A stretch of 64,000 bases of DNA from an uncultured delta proteobacterium (lineage in GTDB: Bacteria; Desulfobacterota; Syntrophobacteria; Syntrophobacterales; Syntrophobacteraceae), in the NCBI GenBank assembly GCA_963808625.1, contig CAWEHK010000035.1, positions 46,489 through 110,488 on the forward strand, read 5' to 3'. A model generated the notes under the pieces. The model was not told the DNA's origin, ran no database searches, and saw only the letters and a list, made by a program, of their open reading frames with translations. The position numbers and the translations under genes are program-made. Of this stretch, positions 393-10,270 are shown piece by piece; position 1 is the first letter of the stretch, and each line of letters begins with the position of its first letter.

Positions 393-570
393 AAACCGCT
401 CTGCAACCAACTTCTTATTCTTCTGCAGCCGCCAATCCGGAAGTCGTGCTGGACGCCCGGCCTTTTTCTGATTGCAATCCTTGGTCAGACGGGATAAACC
501 TTTTCCCTGCCGCTAATCACGTGAAATCCCGAGGTCTTTGCAGGAAAACAACCTAACCGGATGGTTCAGG

Positions 571-2143
571 ATGGAAAGGTTTCCCTTCACCGAAGCAGAT
601 CGGCAGCAAATGCACGCGCTCGAGATCAGCGAGGATCAGGTGCGGGCGCAGCTCGCAGTGTTTCGAAAAACCCCGGCATGCATTCGTCTGCAACGTCCCT
701 GCACCCTGGGTGAGGGCGTGCATCAAATCGCGAAGGCCGACCTCGAAAGCTATCTCGAATGCCACGCCAGGGCCGCGCAGGAGGGGCGCTTCCGCAAGTT
801 TGTGCCGGCCTCCGGAGCGGCCACTCGCATGTTCCAGTCCCTCCTGCAGATCTACCACCTTCCCCAATACCTCGAGCCCAAAGAGCTTCACCGAAAAGCG
901 AAGTATGGCGTCGCCGTGGCGTGCGATTTCCTGAAATTCGTGGAGGGCATTCGCCAGTTCCCATTTTGTCAAGATCTCGAGACCGCCCTTGCCAGAGACG
1001 GCCTGGACCTCAGCGACCTGATCCATTCCCACCAGTATCGGACTATTCTGGACTATCTCCTGACCGACCTCGGGCTCAATTATGGCGGCCTCCCCAAAGG
1101 CCTGTTGAAGTTTCACTGCTATCCGAACGGATGCCGCACCGCCTTCGAGGAACACCTCGAAGAAGCGGTGTCCTTACGTTGCGTGCGCAAAGGGGATTTG
1201 CCGGATTCATTTCACGGTCTCTCCCGAACATGAAGAGGGCTTCAGGCGGCTCTTTGAAGAGGTTAGACTTCGCAATGAAAAGCGGCATGGGGGCGCCTTT
1301 GAGGTCAGCTTCTCCCACCAGCACCCGTCCACCAACACCATTGCCGTGGACATGCGCAACCGCCCCTTCCGGGATCGTTTCGGGCGCCTCGTCTTCCGGC
1401 CCGGGGGGCATGGGGCGCTCCTCGAAAATATCAGCGACCTCCAGGGCGACCTCGTTTACATGAAGAACGTTGACAACGTGAGTCAGGGTCGGTTCATGGA
1501 TGCGATCGGCTTCTGGAAGCGAGTTCTCGGGGGATGTCTGGTGGCGATCGAAGGTGCGGTGCACGAGCATCTGCGCCGTCTGAAAGCCGGCGTAACGCCG
1601 GGTGCGGTCACCGAGGCCGAGGCCCTGGCGGCGGAAAAACTGCTCGTGCGTTTTCCCAAATCCTATGCCGAATGGCCTCTCGATGACCGGCATGCCTATC
1701 TGGAGAAGAAACTGGACCGGCCGATTCGCGTCTGCGGCGTCGTCAGGAATGTGGGCGAACCGGGTGGCGCCCCGTTTTGGGTGGAGGACCGTAACGGAGA
1801 GCTCTCCCTGCAGATCGTCGAAAAGGCCCAGGTCGATTTCAACTCCCCGGAACAGCAGGAGATCTGGAACTCATCCACGCATTTCAATCCGGTTGACCTT
1901 GTCTGTTCCGTCAGGAATTATGAGGGCAGGCCCTTTGACCTGGCACACTACGTCGACCACGATGCCGTCTTCATTTCCAGGAAGTCCATGGGAGGGAGAA
2001 GCCTCAAGGCCCTCGAACTTCCCGGTCTGTGGAACGGTGCCATGGCCGAATGGCTCACGGTGGTCGTGGAGGTCCCACGGATTACTTTCAATCCGGTCAA
2101 AACCGTTTTCGATCTCCTCAAACCCGAACACCAGCCGGAGTAG
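571..2143 (+). CDS. DUF4301-like protein (nucleotide-diphospho-sugar transferase-like), one frameshift near 1173
   Basis: KFVPASGAATRMF, LPKGLLKFH, FRPGGHGALLENI, GEPGGAPFW, THFNPVDL and ALELPGLWNGAMA motifs span ORFs 538-1233 and 1346-2143; the frames join after one indel. Confidence 0.8.
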
Positions 2144-2532: not shown

Positions 2533-3459
2533 ATGATGCGTGCACAGAACTGGATGGTTGATCTACGGACTCGCAATCTGGCAAGTGTCTACCGGGTCAG
2601 GAAGACACTTGTGTTCACCTCATCGCGCTTCCAGGAAATCCTCATTGTCGAAACCGTAGGTTATGGCAAAGCCCTTTTTCTTGACGGGGTCCCTCAGTCT
2701 GCAGAGGCTGATGAGTATATCTATCATGAGGCATTTGTTCACCCGGCCATGTTCATTCATGCTGCGCCGAAGAAGGTGTTTGTTGCCGGGGGCGGCCCCG
2801 GGGCGATGCTGCGGGAGATCCTCAAGCATGAAGCCGTCGTGAAAGCAGTTATGGTGGATATCGATGAGGAGATGATCAGCGCGGCCAGGAAATATCTACC
2901 GGGCTGGCATCAGGGGGCCTTCGAAAACCCTCGGGTGACCTTGAAACACGAGGATGCCAGGGCCTTCCTGGCTGATTCCGGGGAAACCTACGATGTCATC
3001 TTCATGGACTGTACCGACCCCGTCAAGGACAGTCATGCCGCGTTGCTCTTCACCCGCGAGTTCTTCGAACTGGCCCGGTCGCGGCTCGATGCCGGGGGCA
3101 TTTTCGCCATCCAGGCGGAACAGACCAGCCCTGGCGAACTGACCGCCCACCTGTCGTTGGTCAAGACCCTCAGGGAAAGCTTCAGGTCGGTCGTTCCCTA
3201 CCAGGTTTGGGTCCCCTTTTTCGGGGCGCCGTGGGGATTTGTCATCGCCAGTGACGAACCGCTGGAGCCGCTCCTCAGCCCGGAGTCCCTGGCGCCGCGC
3301 TTTCAGGAGAAAGGAGACCTCGGCTTAAGGTTCTATGACATGGAGTCCCACCGGCACATGTTTGCCCTCCCCAAATACCTCCGCGATGCCATTGCAGACC
3401 CGAATCTGGGCGCGGTCATTCACGATCACAAGCATCTGGTGATCGGGGGCGACGCATGA
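2533..3459 (+). CDS. speE: Spermidine synthase / polyamine aminopropyltransferase
   Basis: GKALFLDG-QS-DEYIYHEAFVHPA, GGGPG, VDIDEE, YDVIFMD-TDP motifs. Confidence 0.9.
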   Translation: MMRAQNWMVDLRTRNLASVYRVRKTLVFTSSRFQEILIVETVGYGKALFLDGVPQSAEADEYIYHEAFVHPAMFIHAAPKKVFVAGGGPGAMLREILKHEAVVKAVMVDIDEEMISAARKYLPGWHQGAFENPRVTLKHEDARAFLADSGETYDVIFMDCTDPVKDSHAALLFTREFFELARSRLDAGGIFAIQAEQTSPGELTAHLSLVKTLRESFRSVVPYQVWVPFFGAPWGFVIASDEPLEPLLSPESLAPRFQEKGDLGLRFYDMESHRHMFALPKYLRDAIADPNLGAVIHDHKHLVIGGDA

Positions 3460-3801
3460 CCTTCTCTTTTGGTAGACCTCGCCCAAGACCTCCTCTTATC
3501 TGCCCGGGCTACGAGAAGACACTCCACCCCGGCCCCATTCTCCAAGTCTCTCGTTCTCAAGCACGTATTCATACCCTGTCATCCCATCTAAAAAGAGCGC
3601 GTCGAAGTTCACTGCGTGAAGAGCATCATCGCCTCTTTCGCTCGATGTCCTCATTCTGACTTGGGTTAACGGGAGGCGGGTTTTCCAACCGCCAGGCGAC
3701 ATCGGTTCTAGCGGCAATGTCTTCATCCTGAGCAGAGACCACACAATCCTGATCCTGCCCGGAAAGCAAGTGGGGGATTACCCCATATGCATCAGGCTAA
3801 G

Positions 3802-3954
3802 TACAGCACAGCAGAATAAAGTGTCCATTACCACCCGGTCGTCATTCCCGCATGCTCTTAGCGGGAATCCAGGGAATTTGCACAGCCTGAATTCCCGCCA
3901 GAAACACGCGGGAATGACGAGTGGCATTCGGACACCCATTTATGCGGGGGCGTA
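3802..3954. mobile_element. MITE-like element with imperfect 25-bp terminal inverted repeats, flanked by CTAAG, carrying a GTCATTCCCGC/GCGGGAATGAC palindrome doublet
   Basis: Near-identical copy at 50792-50942; both copies bounded by CTAAG direct repeats. Confidence 0.75.
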
Positions 3955-4013
3955 CTAAGGGGTTTACCCGAGGTGGATTTATGCCTGCGACCGCTTGCCA
4001 GTCGGATGATGAA

Positions 4014-4236
4014 TGCCCTGAAAGGGCTTCATAAAAAATAGCCCAGGGTCAGCAAGAGCGCCACCCTGGGGAGGGGAAACCCAATTTCCTTTTCTTTACC
4101 CTGAAAGGGTTAGATAAATCGTTGTACCGCTATGTTTTATGTAACCCATTCAGGGTAGATAGTCGTGTTGTACCTGGCTCCCCAGGGTGGCGCTATCGCT
4201 GACCCTGGGCTAATTTATCGAGCCCCTTCAGGGCAG
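4014..4236. repeat. Long nested inverted repeat (REP/REPIN-like, GCCCTGAAAGGG family)
   Basis: gccctgaaagggc...tagcccagggtcagc...gcgccaccctgggg pairs with ccccagggtggcgc...gctgaccctgggcta...gccccttcagggc. Confidence 0.8.
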
Positions 4237-4275
4237 TAAAGTTAGCTTGATGCAATTGGGGATTGCCCCCCACCG

Positions 4276-5712
4276 GTGAAGCGAAGTCCGCCGCGCTCTC
4301 CCACGAGCATGCTCCGGTCCCTTCTCCTCATGACCCATCTCAAAATTCCCAGCATCACCACGTGGGTCAAACAAACGCGCACCGTTCCGCTCTTTGCCGT
4401 TCTCGCCGGCTTTGAACGGGATGACACGCCGGGGATCGGGACCTATTACGATTTCTTCGGGCGCCTCGTTGATGGTCCCTATCAGAAACCCTGTCCCCAT
4501 CGGGTCAGGGAATCTCAGGTCCTCAAGGGACGGCATCAGAGAAACCTCGGAGCGGAGAAAAAGGCCCATCTGGAAAAGCACGACCCCTCGTGCCCCCAGT
4601 CGGAAAAGCTTGCCAATGAACTCCTGGCCGATGCTGACAAGCCGCGACCGCAGGGCCTGCCAAAGTTCCTCGAAGACCTCCTCATCAAGATCGCGATCGT
4701 CCCAACCATCCAGGACGGCCTCGTTGACAATCCACATGAACTCATCGTTTCCGGCGATGGCTCCATCCTCGTCACGGCCGCCTCACCCCGCGGCAAACCC
4801 ACCTGCGCCTGCCGCACCCACCAGTGCGACCATGAACGGAGCTACACCTCGCCCACCGCCAAATGGTGCTACGATCACTACCGCGACACTTACTTTTTTG
4901 GCGATCGCTATTATCACCTGGTGCTCCATCAGAATGGCCACGACCTGCCCCTGCTCACGCTCTTGCCAGGTGGCAACGAGAGCGATTTCACCCTCTCCCT
5001 CAAGGCCTTCGACCGTTTTCTCAAGGCCGCCCGGGAACACGGCCTCGATCTGAACATTGCCATCTTCTGCGGCGACGGCCACCATGACTCCCACGCCCAC
5101 TACCGCTATTTCCTCAAAAAGGACGTCAGTCCCGTGATTCCCCTCGGCGAGAACAGCAAAAAAACCTATCCCCATTTGCTCGATGAACAGGGCGTAAAAC
5201 TTGACAGCGACGGCGTACCCCTTTGCCCGCAAGGAATGCGCATGCGCCACCATCAGTATCAGGAAAGCCGCCACACTCATGTCTATGGCTGCCCGGCAAA
5301 ACGCAATACCCATCGCGACGGCAAATCAGTCTATGTCATGCACCTCGAGGATTGCCCGCAACAGAAGGACTGTGCACCCGAAAGCGTTCTCGCCCCTCTG
5401 GTCTACATCAAATCCGATACCGACCCGCGACTCTATCCCCCCATTCCTCGCGACAGTGAGCGCTTTAAAGAGCTCTACAAAGAGCGCAGCGCCACCGAGC
5501 GCTGCAACGCCCTCAATGACACCTGCAAACTGGATCGATCATGCCGAAACGCCAGCTATGGACTGATTCGCCTGACTCTGGCGAACATCGTCGAACATGC
5601 CGTGGTCCGCAACCTGGAAGCCGTGAAACGGTCCTCCAGGAAGAAGCTCCTGGCCCAGACCCTGAGCATGATCGGCATCATTTACCGCGAGGAATTCTTC
5701 AACAGCGGATAA
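4276..5712 (+). CDS. DDE transposase (IS4/IS5-superfamily-like), probably N-terminally truncated
   Basis: SGDGS, CGDGHHD and Y-ERSATER-N (Y..R...E signature); starts abruptly at the PR-P-SMLRS motif with no clear RBS. Confidence 0.75.
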   Translation: MKRSPPRSPTSMLRSLLLMTHLKIPSITTWVKQTRTVPLFAVLAGFERDDTPGIGTYYDFFGRLVDGPYQKPCPHRVRESQVLKGRHQRNLGAEKKAHLEKHDPSCPQSEKLANELLADADKPRPQGLPKFLEDLLIKIAIVPTIQDGLVDNPHELIVSGDGSILVTAASPRGKPTCACRTHQCDHERSYTSPTAKWCYDHYRDTYFFGDRYYHLVLHQNGHDLPLLTLLPGGNESDFTLSLKAFDRFLKAAREHGLDLNIAIFCGDGHHDSHAHYRYFLKKDVSPVIPLGENSKKTYPHLLDEQGVKLDSDGVPLCPQGMRMRHHQYQESRHTHVYGCPAKRNTHRDGKSVYVMHLEDCPQQKDCAPESVLAPLVYIKSDTDPRLYPPIPRDSERFKELYKERSATERCNALNDTCKLDRSCRNASYGLIRLTLANIVEHAVVRNLEAVKRSSRKKLLAQTLSMIGIIYREEFFNSG

Positions 5713-5992
5713 CGATAGGAGTCAAAATGTAGGATTGCTGCTGCCAAACTGAATCAAAATAACCTTCGCCCGGCCGAAAGCCCCTTTCGGACCGAACACC
5801 CGAGCTGTTCCCCTTGTTTCCGGAATGCCCCGCAACTCGACCCAGGATCACCCGTTTTGACCGACCTCCGACCGTCTATCCCCACCCAATGCCCCCCCAA
5901 ACCACCGCAAAACACCCCCGCCACACCAACACGAACCGCCTTCAACAACCAATGGGCTCTCGGATTTCAATTCCGAGAGTTCTCGAAGAAGG

Positions 5993-8740
5993 ATGAACGT
6001 TTTGAAGCCAGATCTGCAAGTGACAATCAAGACATTGCTGGGTAAGGGTCTGAGTCAACGGGAGATCGAACGAAAGACGGGGATCGATCGAAAGACCATC
6101 CGGAGGTATGATCAGTCAACCAGTTTGATGGGGTTGCAAGAAAGTGAGCATTCAAAATCCCCCACTGAGCAAGATGTGGCCACCGGGTCGGGAAAGCCAT
6201 CGGTGGACAATCCCCCATCCTGGCCACCGGCTCAGAAACCAGACTTCCCCAAGCATGTTCGTTCCGCCTGTGAAACGCATCGGGAGTGGATCCAGGAGCA
6301 GGTGAAGCTGGGCCGTAATGCCATGGCCATCTACCAGGATCTGGTGGAACTGTTCGGTTTCAATCACCGCTACAACAGCGTGAAGCGGTTTGTGCGGGGG
6401 CTCAAAAGACAAGACCCTCAGCAGTATGACCGGCTGGAATTCTTGATGGGAGAAGAAGCCCAGGTGGATTATGGGCTGGGCGCACCGACTCTTCATAGCA
6501 GTGGGAAGTATCGGCGCCCCCGTCTGTTCATCATGACGTTGAAGTATTCAGGGCGTGCCTTTCGTAAAGTTGTATGGCGATCGAGCAAGGAAACGTGGGC
6601 CAAGCTGCATGAGGAAGCCTTCCGCTATCTTACGGGGTGCCCCCAATATGTCACCCTGGACAATCTCAAGGAAGGCGTGATCAAGCCGGACATCTATGAA
6701 CCGGACCTCAATCCTCTCTATGCCGCCATGTTGGAGCACTACAAGGTGGTGGCGGACCCGGCGAGGGTCAGCGACTCGGACCGCAAGGGAACGGTGGAAA
6801 ATGCTGTGAAACACACGCAGAACACCGCCCTGAAAGGACGCAAATTCGGCAGCATCGAGGCCCAGAATGAATGGTTGTTGCACTGGGAAAGTCGCTGGGC
6901 ATCGCTGCGGATCCATGGCCGGGCCAAACGCCAGGTAGAGGAAATGTTTCAGGAAGAGAAACCCTATCTGACGGAACTGCCCCTGAGGCCGTTTCGCTAT
7001 TTTCAGCAGGAGACCCGGACGGTCTACGATGACGGGACGATCCAGGTGGGCAACTCCTACTATGCGGCGAGTCCCGCTCCGTTAGGCAGTGAGGTGATGG
7101 TGCGGATCTTCGATGAAGAAATCGAGATTCTCGATCCTCGCCGGATGGAGGTCATTCGTCGACATCCAAAGAGTATGCGGGCGGGTTCCTTGATGATGGA
7201 ACCCGGGGACCGGATCTTCAATCCGTCTCGGGAAACGGACCGACTCTTGGCCCAGGCCGAAGCCATCGGCCCGCACACCTTCGGCTTGTGCGAGCAATGG
7301 TTTAACGAAGAAGGGCGCAGCGGCCAACGCCGGATGTATGGCCTGGTTAATCTGGTTCGGCATTACCCGGCCGACACCGTGGAGAAAGCGGCAGAACTGG
7401 CCAGACACAATGGACTGAGAAGCTCCAAAGCCTTGCGGCGGATGGTGGAGAGCATGGCCGCGGAAGCCGGGGAAAGGAAGGTCGAACCATCCGAAGGGCT
7501 CACGCAAGACCATCCCTTGATTCGCTCGGGTGAAGACTACGCCGCCTTCTGGGATCAGCATGCCGCCCAAGCGGCGCCTGAGGCCGGAGCCGTCCCAAAG
7601 GAGAGCATTCCCTCCAGATCGCCCATCATCTGCCGGGAGCAACTGCCCCAAATCTGGCGGCAAGCAAGTTGGCTGAAGGTGATCGAGGTCTTTCAACTGA
7701 GTGTAGACCACAAGCGCCGCCGCCGAGACGATGAAATCTGGCTCAAATCACCGTTTACGCTTGAGGAGCAGGCCTCAATGCACGTCAGTTTATCGGCAAA
7801 CATCTACAAGGATTTCAGCAGCGGCAAAGGCGGCGGGATCATGCAATTCTGCCGGGAGATGCTGCGCCGGCAGGGTCGGGAAATGACCATGTTCGAAGCA
7901 GCGCAATGGATGGTAGCCGAAGGAATCTCCACGGCGAAGCCCGAAACCTTCCGTGCACACGGCGAGCGGCCGCAGCCAGAGGCAACAGGCCATCCCCTGG
8001 TCTCCAATCACATCAATCGCGCCATCGAAGTCGATCTGCGCCGTTATCTGCGCCCGGATCATCCCGAATGGCGTCGTCGGGGCATATCCGCTGGCACCTG
8101 CCGCTACCTGGGCTGTGGGTATTTGCCAAAGCTTGCCAGGGGAAGTGCGGCCTCTCCCCTCAACTCCAGGTTAGTGTTCCAGATTCGCGGCCTGAGAGAA
8201 AACGGCCATGATCTTCAGGCGATTATCCTGAGTCATAGCGGACGGGCACTCTCCCGTGAACAAGAAGACGCGGATGGAAAATACTGGAGCTATCCGTTCC
8301 GGAAAGGTTGGGAAATCTACAATCAGGATCAGCTTCTGTTAGATGCGGAAGCTCGCCGTCAAGCAAACACTTTTGGCCTGGTTCTGGTGGAGGGGTTTTT
8401 TGATGTGGCCAAGCTGGTGGAAGCAGGTTGCCGGAACGCCGGCGCCTTGATGGGCACACACCTCTCCGGGGAACAGATCGAGCGGTTGGCGTGGCTTCGT
8501 TCCCGCATCCGGTTCCCTCGGATCGTGTTGTTTCTGGACCGGGACCAGGCTGGGCGCAACGGAGCCCGGCAGATACGCGAGCGACTTCGGGGTCACCACT
8601 TCGAGGTGAACGTGTTTGACTGGGATCGGAACATCTCCTGGAATGGTAAACACCTTGAGCCGATCCCGGACGCTATCCAAGACCCGGCCGACATGCCGGT
8701 GGAACAACTTCAGCAGTTGCGCAGGGAAGGCATCATTTAA
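5993..8740 (+). CDS. istA: IS21 IstA transposase fused to a C-terminal DnaG-like primase (CHC2-like domain, catalytic core, TOPRIM)
   Basis: HTH (SQREIERKTGIDRKTIRRY), DDE triad AQVD / TLDN / KGTVE; then KSPF...YKDFSSGKGG, RLVFQI, SGRAL, KYW, VLVEGFFD, ALMGT, FLDRD-AG, DPAD. Confidence 0.88.
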   Translation: MNVLKPDLQVTIKTLLGKGLSQREIERKTGIDRKTIRRYDQSTSLMGLQESEHSKSPTEQDVATGSGKPSVDNPPSWPPAQKPDFPKHVRSACETHREWIQEQVKLGRNAMAIYQDLVELFGFNHRYNSVKRFVRGLKRQDPQQYDRLEFLMGEEAQVDYGLGAPTLHSSGKYRRPRLFIMTLKYSGRAFRKVVWRSSKETWAKLHEEAFRYLTGCPQYVTLDNLKEGVIKPDIYEPDLNPLYAAMLEHYKVVADPARVSDSDRKGTVENAVKHTQNTALKGRKFGSIEAQNEWLLHWESRWASLRIHGRAKRQVEEMFQEEKPYLTELPLRPFRYFQQETRTVYDDGTIQVGNSYYAASPAPLGSEVMVRIFDEEIEILDPRRMEVIRRHPKSMRAGSLMMEPGDRIFNPSRETDRLLAQAEAIGPHTFGLCEQWFNEEGRSGQRRMYGLVNLVRHYPADTVEKAAELARHNGLRSSKALRRMVESMAAEAGERKVEPSEGLTQDHPLIRSGEDYAAFWDQHAAQAAPEAGAVPKESIPSRSPIICREQLPQIWRQASWLKVIEVFQLSVDHKRRRRDDEIWLKSPFTLEEQASMHVSLSANIYKDFSSGKGGGIMQFCREMLRRQGREMTMFEAAQWMVAEGISTAKPETFRAHGERPQPEATGHPLVSNHINRAIEVDLRRYLRPDHPEWRRRGISAGTCRYLGCGYLPKLARGSAASPLNSRLVFQIRGLRENGHDLQAIILSHSGRALSREQEDADGKYWSYPFRKGWEIYNQDQLLLDAEARRQANTFGLVLVEGFFDVAKLVEAGCRNAGALMGTHLSGEQIERLAWLRSRIRFPRIVLFLDRDQAGRNGARQIRERLRGHHFEVNVFDWDRNISWNGKHLEPIPDAIQDPADMPVEQLQQLRREGII

Positions 8741-8784
8741 AAAAAGTAATCACCGGATGAAAAAGAAAACAAGGAGCCAAACCG

Positions 8785-9585
8785 ATGGACATGCCGAACG
8801 CAGAAATCCAAAGACATCTTGGGGCGCTTCGCCTCCATGGTATGAAAGCCACCCTGGAGCCCCGACTCATTCAGGCCAATCAGGGCGCTTCCTTTATAGA
8901 GATGTTTGCCTGCCTGGTGCAAGATGAGCTCGATTGGCGGAGCTCAAGGCTTACTGAAACCCGCTTCAAGGCCTCCGGTCTCACAGAGCGACCCACTCTG
9001 ACGGAATTCGATTGGGGCTTCAATCCGAAACTGCCCAAGAAGGAAATCTATGAACTGGTCAGCGGCAAGTTCATTCGAGACGGCGATGACGCCCTGCTGA
9101 TCGGGGCGCCGGGAACGGGCAAATCCCATATCGCCAAAACGGTGGCCCACTCCGCCATCCAGACCGGCTATAAAGTCGTGTATCGGGAAGCTCACACCTT
9201 CTTCGAAGACCTCTTCGAAGCCACTCAGCTCAAACGGAGAAAAAAGATGACCAAGCTCTTCTCCGAAGCAGATCTCTTGGTCATCGACGACTTGTTCCTG
9301 CGAAAGAAAGTCAACGATCACGCTACCGACGATTTGCTCGATATTATTCTGAATCGCTATTCCTCCAGGAAAAGTTCGATGATAACCTCAAATCGACCCC
9401 TGGAGGACTGGGGAAAACTCCTTTACGACAATGCCGCCTCCTCGGTCATCCTGTACCGCCTCCTTCACCGGGGCCATCTGCTCAAGTTCGAAGGCAAAAG
9501 TTATCGCCTCAAGGAGGCATCGATCCGGTTGACGGAAAACAAACGAAAATCTCTGGATGAAAAAGGAATAAGCTTGGATCTCTGA
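8785..9585 (+). CDS. istB: IS21 IstB AAA+ ATPase (DnaC-like)
   Basis: Walker A GAPGTGKS, Walker B LLVIDDL, ITSNR, RLLH, GKSYR; RBS AAGGAG upstream. Confidence 0.92.
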   Translation: MDMPNAEIQRHLGALRLHGMKATLEPRLIQANQGASFIEMFACLVQDELDWRSSRLTETRFKASGLTERPTLTEFDWGFNPKLPKKEIYELVSGKFIRDGDDALLIGAPGTGKSHIAKTVAHSAIQTGYKVVYREAHTFFEDLFEATQLKRRKKMTKLFSEADLLVIDDLFLRKKVNDHATDDLLDIILNRYSSRKSSMITSNRPLEDWGKLLYDNAASSVILYRLLHRGHLLKFEGKSYRLKEASIRLTENKRKSLDEKGISLDL

Positions 9586-9697
9586 GCAGATTAACGGTAG
9601 GTTATTTCTCTACTGTCGCCGAAGCACTTCGACCCGACTACAGGGTGGGGGATTTTGACCCGGCCACAAGTGGGGGATTTTCAAGTGGCCATCCGGG

Positions 9698-10270
9698 CTT
9701 CTGGTTGTCCAATCTGGGCATCTTGACCGAAGCGACTGGGTTTTCACCCAGATAGATCTTCCAGAGTTTTGCTAGATTATATAGACGATTCATGAGGACG
9801 ATCTGATGCTTTATAGTGGCCTCAGTGAAAGGCCTACCGTGAATATTCTTACCCTCCTTCAGCTCTGTTTTCATTCTTTCGATATCGGGACCAGTAATTG
9901 AGTCCAGGCGCATTTTCCCGAATCGGGGTTCAAGGTGAGCCCTGTAGTTGTATTCATCACACTTCCAAGTCTTTTTATTGTGTTTAGCCCAAATTAGGTA
10001 CTGTTCCAACAGATCATTGAGCTTCGGGCTTAGATTTACCCTATGGTGGGAGATGTCGTACTCAGCCCTGACAAGGTCACCCTTTATTGCAGCTTCAGTC
10101 TCTCTGGCAATGGTGAGATTATCGACCATCCGGTTTACGCGCTTGCCCTTTACGCTGACACATACCCTGTATTTTTTCTCCCTCCCAAAAATCATGCCAC
10201 AGAACGGGCATATCTTGGAATCAATCGCGACCGAGGACCTGCACTTTGTACAATAAATTTGGATAGCCAC
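9698..10270 (-). pseudogene. Tyrosine integrase, N-terminal half only (Zn-ribbon, arm- and core-binding domains), truncated by the IS21 element
   Basis: HLEPRFG-MRLDSIT-DIE, TIKHQI-LMNRLYN-A--W---GENP core-binding pattern; the frame runs into the IS end; catalytic domain absent. Confidence 0.8.

Follow-up and report, generated by a model that had tools for sequence, protein, structure and literature searches.

An IS21-family element with an istA-primase fusion gene

The DNA analysed here, referred to as the window, is a 64,000-nucleotide stretch of contig CAWEHK010000035.1 from an uncultured delta proteobacterium of the Syntrophobacteraceae. The source is a metagenome-assembled draft genome of 54 contigs, which is 84.6% complete. 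Near one end of the window lies a copy of an IS21-family insertion sequence (IS). The element carries only two genes, an istA-primase fusion and istB, and has no relaxase and no transfer system of the type IV secretion type. An earlier note, made from the DNA letters of the window, had described the first gene as a single uninterrupted open reading frame (ORF) of 915 amino acids that joins an IstA transposase to a DnaG-type primase, followed by istB. This description was borne out by profile searches, a structure model, and homologues. The features of the element are as follows.

5985..9697, + strand: IS21-family element copy, truncated at its 5' end; 97% identity to a second copy in the genome
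5993..8740, + strand: istA-primase fusion gene; single ORF of 915 amino acids, no internal stop
6029..6982, + strand: IstA N-terminal helix-turn-helix and DDE catalytic domain, amino acids 13–330 (NF033546, PDB alignment)
6467–6469, 6659–6661, and 6797–6799, + strand: codons of the IstA DDE residues D159, D223, and E269, respectively
6977..7183, + strand: IstA beta-barrel (Mu-transposase C-terminal-like), amino acids 329–397 (PF22483 Mu-transpos_C_2, E 5.1e-07)
7223..7552, + strand: helical C-terminal region of IstA, amino acids ~411–520 (helices in the model, end of unfused relatives)
7553..7636, + strand: variable linker joining IstA to the primase module, amino acids ~521–548 (ratio of nonsynonymous to synonymous substitution rates (dN/dS) of 0.39, low predicted local distance difference test score (pLDDT), indel in the second copy)
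7637..7918, + strand: predicted zinc-less zinc-ribbon-like domain of the DnaG type, amino acids ~549–642 (profile, predicted fold)
8027..8362, + strand: predicted DnaG RNA-polymerase core, N-terminal subdomain, amino acids ~679–790 (motifs RRGIS, RLVFQIRG, GRAL, and GKYW)
8363..8737, + strand: predicted TOPRIM domain and short C-terminal helix, amino acids 791–915 (Toprim_4/Toprim_2)
8785..9585, + strand: istB, AAA+ helper ATPase of 266 amino acids (PF01695)
9645..9697, + strand: right terminal inverted repeat with two GTGGGGGATTTT(G/C)A repeats; 85% identity over 53 nucleotides to the left inverted repeat of the second copy

The IstA part

The catalytic region of IstA in the fusion protein (amino acids 13–330) matches the NCBIfam model of the IS21 transposase, NF033546, with 240.8 bits (cutoff 160), and the IstA part can be aligned to the structures of IS5376 IstA (PDB 8b4h and 8q4d). 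Conservation of residues was assessed in an alignment of 30 fusion proteins having 59–83% identity to the window protein. D159, D223, and E269 are the same residue in all 30, in agreement with the intact D-D-E triad reported in the earlier note. The helices beyond the beta-barrel (amino acids 411–495) are predicted with a pLDDT of about 80–90 within an otherwise poor AlphaFold model of the whole fusion. That model, based on a shallow and homogeneous alignment, has a mean pLDDT of 57, and the placement of the module relative to IstA is not readable from it. Two unfused IstA relatives, with open frames of 522 amino acids (38% identity) and 571 amino acids (34%), align up to amino acids 517–518 of the fusion, and the IstA part is thus a complete transposase on its own. 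The LTQDHPLIRSGEDY motif near the end of IstA has its first nucleotide at 7499. The second gene product, IstB, matches PF01695 with 163.3 bits (cutoff 24.1) and falls slightly short of the cutoff of NF038214 (193.9 bits, cutoff 200).

The primase module

By fold class, as judged from profiles and a structure model, the C-terminal module is a DnaG-type primase, with an RNA-polymerase core and a TOPRIM domain that carries the acidic metal ligands. Both Pfam Toprim_4 (42.5 bits, E 7.6e-11) and Toprim_2 (39.6 bits, E 6.8e-10) match amino acids 796–884 above their cutoffs, and the PHROGs annotation of the module is 'DNA primase' (1.3e-27). The dnaG model TIGR01391 matches the fusion with an E-value of 6.4e-24, yet its 84.6 bits compare with an equivalog cutoff of 283.6. 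The zinc-finger model zf-CHC2 (PF01807) scores 21.2 bits, under its cutoff of 24.9. When a profile built from 40 family members was compared with the PDB, DnaG of Aquifex aeolicus (2au3) was matched across its zinc-binding and polymerase domains with an E-value of 8.2e-35. The catalytic cores of DnaG from Staphylococcus aureus (2.1e-24), Bacillus subtilis, Pseudomonas aeruginosa, Escherichia coli, and Mycobacterium tuberculosis were matched at 1e-12 to 1e-24, and the isolated Bacillus zinc-binding domain (1d0q) at 5e-13.

An AlphaFold2 model of amino acids 530–915 has a mean pLDDT of 90.9, with a sole disordered segment at amino acids ~657–671. The top 20 structures retrieved with this model by Foldseek are all DnaG structures, 2au3 being first (4e-16). 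RNase M5 (1.2e-2) and RecR follow only at about 1e-2, and the alignment to RNase M5 covers about 70–117 residues.

The acidic residues of the TOPRIM domain are strictly conserved. E800, G801, and D804 of the EGxxD motif, D849 and D851 of the DxD motif, and D897 and D900 of the DPxD motif are unchanged in 30 of 30 fusions, as are R726 and R751 of the polymerase core; Y764 is also invariant, and K763 nearly so. The motifs lie within a few bases of where the earlier note had placed them (VEGFFD from E800 at nucleotide 8390, DRD from D849 at 8537, and DPAD from D897 at 8681), and the acidic residues it had called intact are so in all 30 fusions. The catalytic residues of the module are intact. The CHC2-like domain of the earlier note was right as to fold and wrong as to zinc: the four zinc-ligand positions of the ribbon domain are S, T, D, and S in the window protein. 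The first of these positions is serine in 36 of the 40 family members, and CHC2 is kept by only one of the 40. At the other end, the ORF stops 31 amino acids past the TOPRIM match, which leaves no room for a DnaB-helicase-binding domain.

Selection on the fusion protein

Median dN/dS values for the family were determined by the Nei-Gojobori method on codon alignments, from 209 non-independent pairs of 34 distinct sequences having dS of 0.05–1.2 (183 pairs for the linkers).

IstA, amino acids 1–400: 0.14
IstA, C-terminal region: 0.12
Ribbon-like domain: 0.115
Polymerase core: 0.137
TOPRIM domain: 0.188
Two linkers: 0.39 and 0.48

The values for the primase domains, about 0.12–0.19, are not those of neutral evolution and are similar to those of IstA, which means that the primase is as constrained as the transposase. 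The primase is thus under purifying selection, and this includes its zinc-less ribbon. A comparable result was obtained for the two copies in the genome of the window, for which dN/dS is 0.24 in the primase part (24.5 synonymous and 20.5 nonsynonymous differences) and 0.21–0.22 in both IstA parts.

Distribution and mobility of the element

The layout of the fusion with istB downstream, which the earlier note had known from a single locus, recurs in many independent fusions. With the primase part as query, a large protein database returned 579 matches. The best 120 of these are 67–95% identical, and most of them are 900–920 amino acids long with transposase and Toprim Pfam domains. The architecture has thus already been deposited many times, under the name 'IS21 family transposase' at NCBI; the JGI name is 'transposase/RNase M5'. 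A collection of species-representative genomes yielded 80 loci that were retained for analysis, 71 of which are close relatives. IstA and the primase lie in one open frame, from the start of the former to the end of the latter, in 41 of the 50 loci with enough upstream sequence, the remaining nine being broken by frameshifts or insertions, and istB lies downstream in 56 of the 57 loci having a full primase match.

The record titles of the loci include genomes labelled as Syntrophobacteraceae, Desulfatiglandales, Acidobacteriota/Terriglobia, Omnitrophota, and Treponemataceae. Isolates are also among them, namely Desulfoferrobacter suflitae and Delta proteobacterium NaphS2, the latter with many copies of the element. 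Within a sample of 401 genomes from the phylum of the window, the fusion is found in two (the window genome and G223) and a free-standing relative of the primase in one (G279). The distribution in the phylum is patchy, as expected for horizontal spread.

Recent movement is evident from one long-read genome, in which five copies are 99.9–100% identical over 3,724 base pairs (bp) and have the same inverted repeats at five different sites. Each end of these copies has two AAAATCCCCCAC-type repeats. Direct target duplications flank the copies at loci L044, L045, L046, L047, and L068 (element at 3311–7034 in these loci) and differ in length (8, 4–5, 7, 5, and 6 bp). We conclude that the fusion is carried by an IS21-family insertion sequence that is widespread, has been active recently, and measures about 3.72–3.82 kb.

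Contigs from four public sequencing runs (two DNA and two RNA libraries, from at most three studies) bridge the boundary between IstA and the primase, at which a chimeric join had been a concern of the earlier note. The RNA-library contigs X16 and X17 cover most of the element, possibly as a result of DNA carry-over. Two contigs as long as the IS itself, L013 and L053, have the inverted repeats as their exact boundaries and show no terminal overlap.

Three further observations were made on the copies of the element. The termini of the identical copies are CC...GG, and the usual TG...CA sits 2–3 bases further in. Two forward copies of a AAAATCCCCCAC-like terminal-repeat motif occur within the istA coding region of the window (6151–6166 and 6209–6222, + strand). 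This internal pair recurs at equivalent positions and spacing in loci L027, L032, L037, L050, and L053, and a single copy is present in L011, L013, and L048; these sites may be extra binding sites for the transposase, or merely reflect a conserved peptide. At loci L033, L043, L064, and L071, primase-bearing elements are broken by insertions of 1.8–3.5 kb in istA, the primase part, or istB, which suggests nested IS activity in NaphS2 and a Desulfatiglandales genome.

Origin of the primase module

An exhaustive search of representatives gave 1,948 relatives of the module at E<=0.001. Below the fusions in this list are many free-standing proteins of ~360–400 amino acids, which match over the whole module with 34–51% identity. 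We obtained the gene context of nine of these (L072–L074, L076, L080–L082, L086, and L087) and scanned the neighbours in eight, all but L086. Around these relatives, which have 34–39% identity to the module, the neighbouring genes encode MobA/VirD2-type relaxases, MobC/NikA, type IV coupling proteins, ParA, a Rep3 initiator, and tyrosine integrases, and none of the contexts examined contains an IS21 gene pair. The free-standing proteins form a clade of small DnaG-like primases with a zinc-less ribbon, located in putative mobilisable elements of several phyla; from their neighbours, their hosts are putatively mobilisable or conjugative elements.

In a quick maximum-likelihood tree of 52 rows, for which midpoint rooting was used for drawing only, the fusions fall into one group nested among the free-standing proteins. 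The same group also contains one 383-amino acid protein that adjoins a second fusion cluster. The module may thus have been taken, in one capture, from small primases that work independently of DnaB and belong to conjugative or mobilisable elements. Among the 72,556 plasmid records of PLSDB, no match to the module was found at E<=1e-8. At E<=0.01 there are matches in 95 records, and the 15 listed are ~25% identical and fall on dnaG/DNA primase genes or unannotated stretches.

The Pfam profiles Toprim_2 and Toprim_3, along with Toprim_4, are described, in the excerpted text of Iyer et al. 2017, as the active TOPRIM of DnaG-like primases from conjugative elements, and the same excerpt states that the TraC1 and SogL primases prime DNA synthesis following transfer. 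The word 'transposase' is absent from Iyer et al. 2017.

The window copy and its neighbourhood

The second copy in the same draft genome (G000:C36) is 97% identical across window positions 5985–9697. Its fusion ORF and istB are intact, and the sole difference in length is a 9-amino acid in-frame deletion in the linker. The earlier note had delimited the element as 5993..9697; the right end at 9697 is correct, but the left end is not a true terminus. The window copy is homologous to the complete second copy only from 5985 onwards, 8 bp upstream of the ATG. The ~137 bp to the left of this point are missing from it, among them the left inverted repeat, which lies at L002 1364–1415 in the second copy. 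An orphan left end was not found elsewhere in the genome assembly. Two repeated transposase sites are present in each terminal inverted repeat of the second copy and related copies. Because its left end is missing, the window copy probably cannot move by itself, despite both of its genes being intact.

Directly upstream, at window positions 4276–5984, is an element resembling the IS1182 family, with a 478-amino acid ORF (NF033551, 4e-13; weak DDE_Tnp_1). Positions 5204–5984 constitute the terminal part of a repeat belonging to the IS1182-like gene. Contig C21 has a stretch of 98.7–100% identity, and relatives of 71–74% identity on C27 and C8 end at base 5984. Since genome matches elsewhere also stop there, the right terminus of the IS1182-like element abuts the truncated IS21 copy.

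On the other side, the product of an ORF at 9638–10270 (− strand) corresponds to just the N-terminal part of a tyrosine integrase, with its zinc-ribbon and SAM-like domains, and the last codons of the ORF lie within the right end of the IS. The catalytic half of the integrase was not found nearby, and the gene appears to have been cut by the IS insertion. Further away, a DUF4301 gene at window positions 538–2140 is split into two frames, 538–1230 corresponding to profile positions 1–187 and 1346–2140 to positions 245–507; the gene is frameshifted, a pseudogene, or misassembled.

A possible role for the primase in transposition

The reading we favour, to which we assign an even chance, is that the tethered primase primes copying of the element during copy-out transposition. 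IstA and the DnaC-like IstB would cleave and join 3' ends only, and the element would then have to be copied by way of a circle or an abutted-end junction (copy-out/paste-in). The donor 3'-OH made by the transposase would prime one strand, and the complementary strand would require de novo priming, in a copy-out or a Shapiro-type replicative route alike. Host DnaG normally requires DnaB, and hence a loaded primosome. The tethered primase would instead supply the displaced single strand with RNA primers at the transpososome, and host polymerase could finish the double-stranded intermediate without assembly of the host DnaB-DnaG primosome. Such independence from host loaders would aid function across several phyla.

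According to a structural study (Nature 2024), 3' ends that have been cleaved beforehand are joined to a bent target by tetramers of IstA together with decamers of IstB, the very end of the IstA C-terminus is not resolved in the structure and has no defined role, and copy-out/paste-in transposition through a circle or abutted-end junction is proposed for IS21. IS21 is also among the circle-forming IS families listed by a 2023 preprint. The premise of the earlier note that copy-out of IS911 depends on host DnaG was not confirmed, the name 'DnaG' being absent from the 2023 preprint.

Several points weigh against a role in copy-out. Copy-out by IS21 is no more than a proposal, and primer synthesis, a circle junction, and a dependence of transposition on the module are all inferred. 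Canonical IS21 elements transpose without a primase of their own, and the module is therefore not required by the chemistry of the family. The zinc-ribbon domain of cellular DnaG is required for template recognition, and the loss of all four zinc ligands could mean that primase activity is altered or lost in the fusions. Lastly, no right-end-to-left-end junction was present in the contigs of the four runs, a weak argument since contigs drop rare forms.

An active tethered primase might act at another step, priming the lagging strand on a target-joined Shapiro intermediate and giving cointegrates rather than a circle. This fits with IstA being described as closely analogous in structure to MuA, for which transposition is replicative, with the replicon fusion and 'cointegrase' forms for which IS21 is known (both as given in excerpted sources), and with the uncleaved non-transferred strand of the IstA substrates used in the structural study (Nature 2024). 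We nonetheless consider it unlikely, as the two-gene element has no visible resolvase or res-like function and simple insertions with short duplications predominate among the copies examined. Still less probable is a role of the module in DNA binding or targeting, by which it would recognise single-stranded DNA or forks and steer insertion to replicating or conjugating DNA. The loss of the first zinc ligand in 36 of 40 family members, with CHC2 in one of 40, would be in keeping with a binding role, as would the absence of a helicase-binding domain and target duplications that range from 4 to 8 bp. The acidic residues that bind metal and the basic ones in the polymerase core are, however, all invariant, which mere binding would not need, and the free-standing relatives with the same ligand loss belong to the class of conjugative primases that the excerpted source describes as active.

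The TOPRIM domain could also be a nuclease that cleaves the 5' strands not transferred, in the manner of TnsA in Tn7, and the element would then be a cut-and-paste transposon. TOPRIM is a nuclease in OLD-family proteins and RNase M5, and 'RNase M5' is the automatic JGI name for the fusion proteins; but the DnaG polymerase core that precedes TOPRIM is complete and conserved, the top structural matches are all primases, with RNase M5 only at E 1.2e-2, and the Pfam models that fit best, Toprim_4 and Toprim_2, are of the primase type. We regard a nuclease as improbable. That the fusion is an assembly chimera, or the primase a functionless passenger domain in decay, might be suspected from a metagenome-assembled draft of 54 contigs in which the window copy is truncated beside another IS. 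This explanation is refuted by the second intact copy, by hundreds of independent homologues, some in isolate genomes, by the four runs that bridge the junction, and by purifying selection on the module, and we give it next to no weight.

Relation to known systems

The element resembles canonical IS21 and IS5376 in the layout of IstA (helix-turn-helix, DDE domain, and beta-barrel) followed by IstB, and, in related copies, in having two repeated sites per terminal inverted repeat and short target duplications. It differs in that its IstA is 915 amino acids long, as compared with ~400 reported for the studied IS21 transposase in the accessible portion of its description, and in that a complete primase module is aboard, which brings the element to about 3.7–3.8 kb. 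The closest unfused IstA in a 400-genome sample of the phylum of the window has 38% identity.

With the primases of conjugative elements, such as TraC1 of RP4 and SogL of R64, the module shares a ribbon-like domain, a polymerase core, and TOPRIM with no helicase-binding domain. The best Pfam models for the module, Toprim_4 and Toprim_2, likewise point to this group, and its free-standing relatives adjoin relaxases and coupling proteins. The likeness to TraC1 and Sog is by class only, and the module differs from these primases in being fused to a transposase in an IS without transfer genes. Cellular DnaG has the same fold and catalytic motifs, whereas the module is far under the equivalog cutoff and lacks both zinc ligands and a C-terminal DnaB-binding domain. 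A parallel also exists with IEE (IS-excision enhancer, a PrimPol-helicase), in which a primase-class enzyme is tied to the action of transposase on circle-forming IS families. Unlike the fusion, IEE is an archaeo-eukaryotic-type primase that is encoded by a separate gene outside the IS and promotes excision.

Implications for IS21-family transposition

No published IstA-primase or IstA-TOPRIM fusion was found in the full-text literature outside subscription journals and ISfinder, in line with the earlier note, which had known of no description of this architecture. There is a gap in annotation, with the fusions labelled 'IS21 family transposase' or, wrongly, RNase M5. The element may be the first DDE transposon with its own priming enzyme, in the form of a helicase-independent primase that is tethered to the transpososome beside a DnaC-like ATPase; we put the chance of this a little short of even. 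The recruitment of a conjugation-type primase by a transposon would open a new path for domains to pass from one mobile element to another, and a compact, host-independent priming module may be of use as a tool.

The fusion lineage makes testable the question of how IS21-family elements handle the uncleaved strand and whether they replicate during transposition. That an intact primase is kept under purifying selection on the C-terminus of IstA is an argument for DNA synthesis being both integral to transposition and a limiting step in it, and the fusion constitutes an experimental system in which this step can be switched off by point mutation. If the primase acts as we propose, point mutants in TOPRIM would give a direct genetic handle on the copy-out/paste-in pathway of IS21, which has long been proposed and is unproven, and the replicative step of IS21 transposition would be self-sufficient and portable across phyla.

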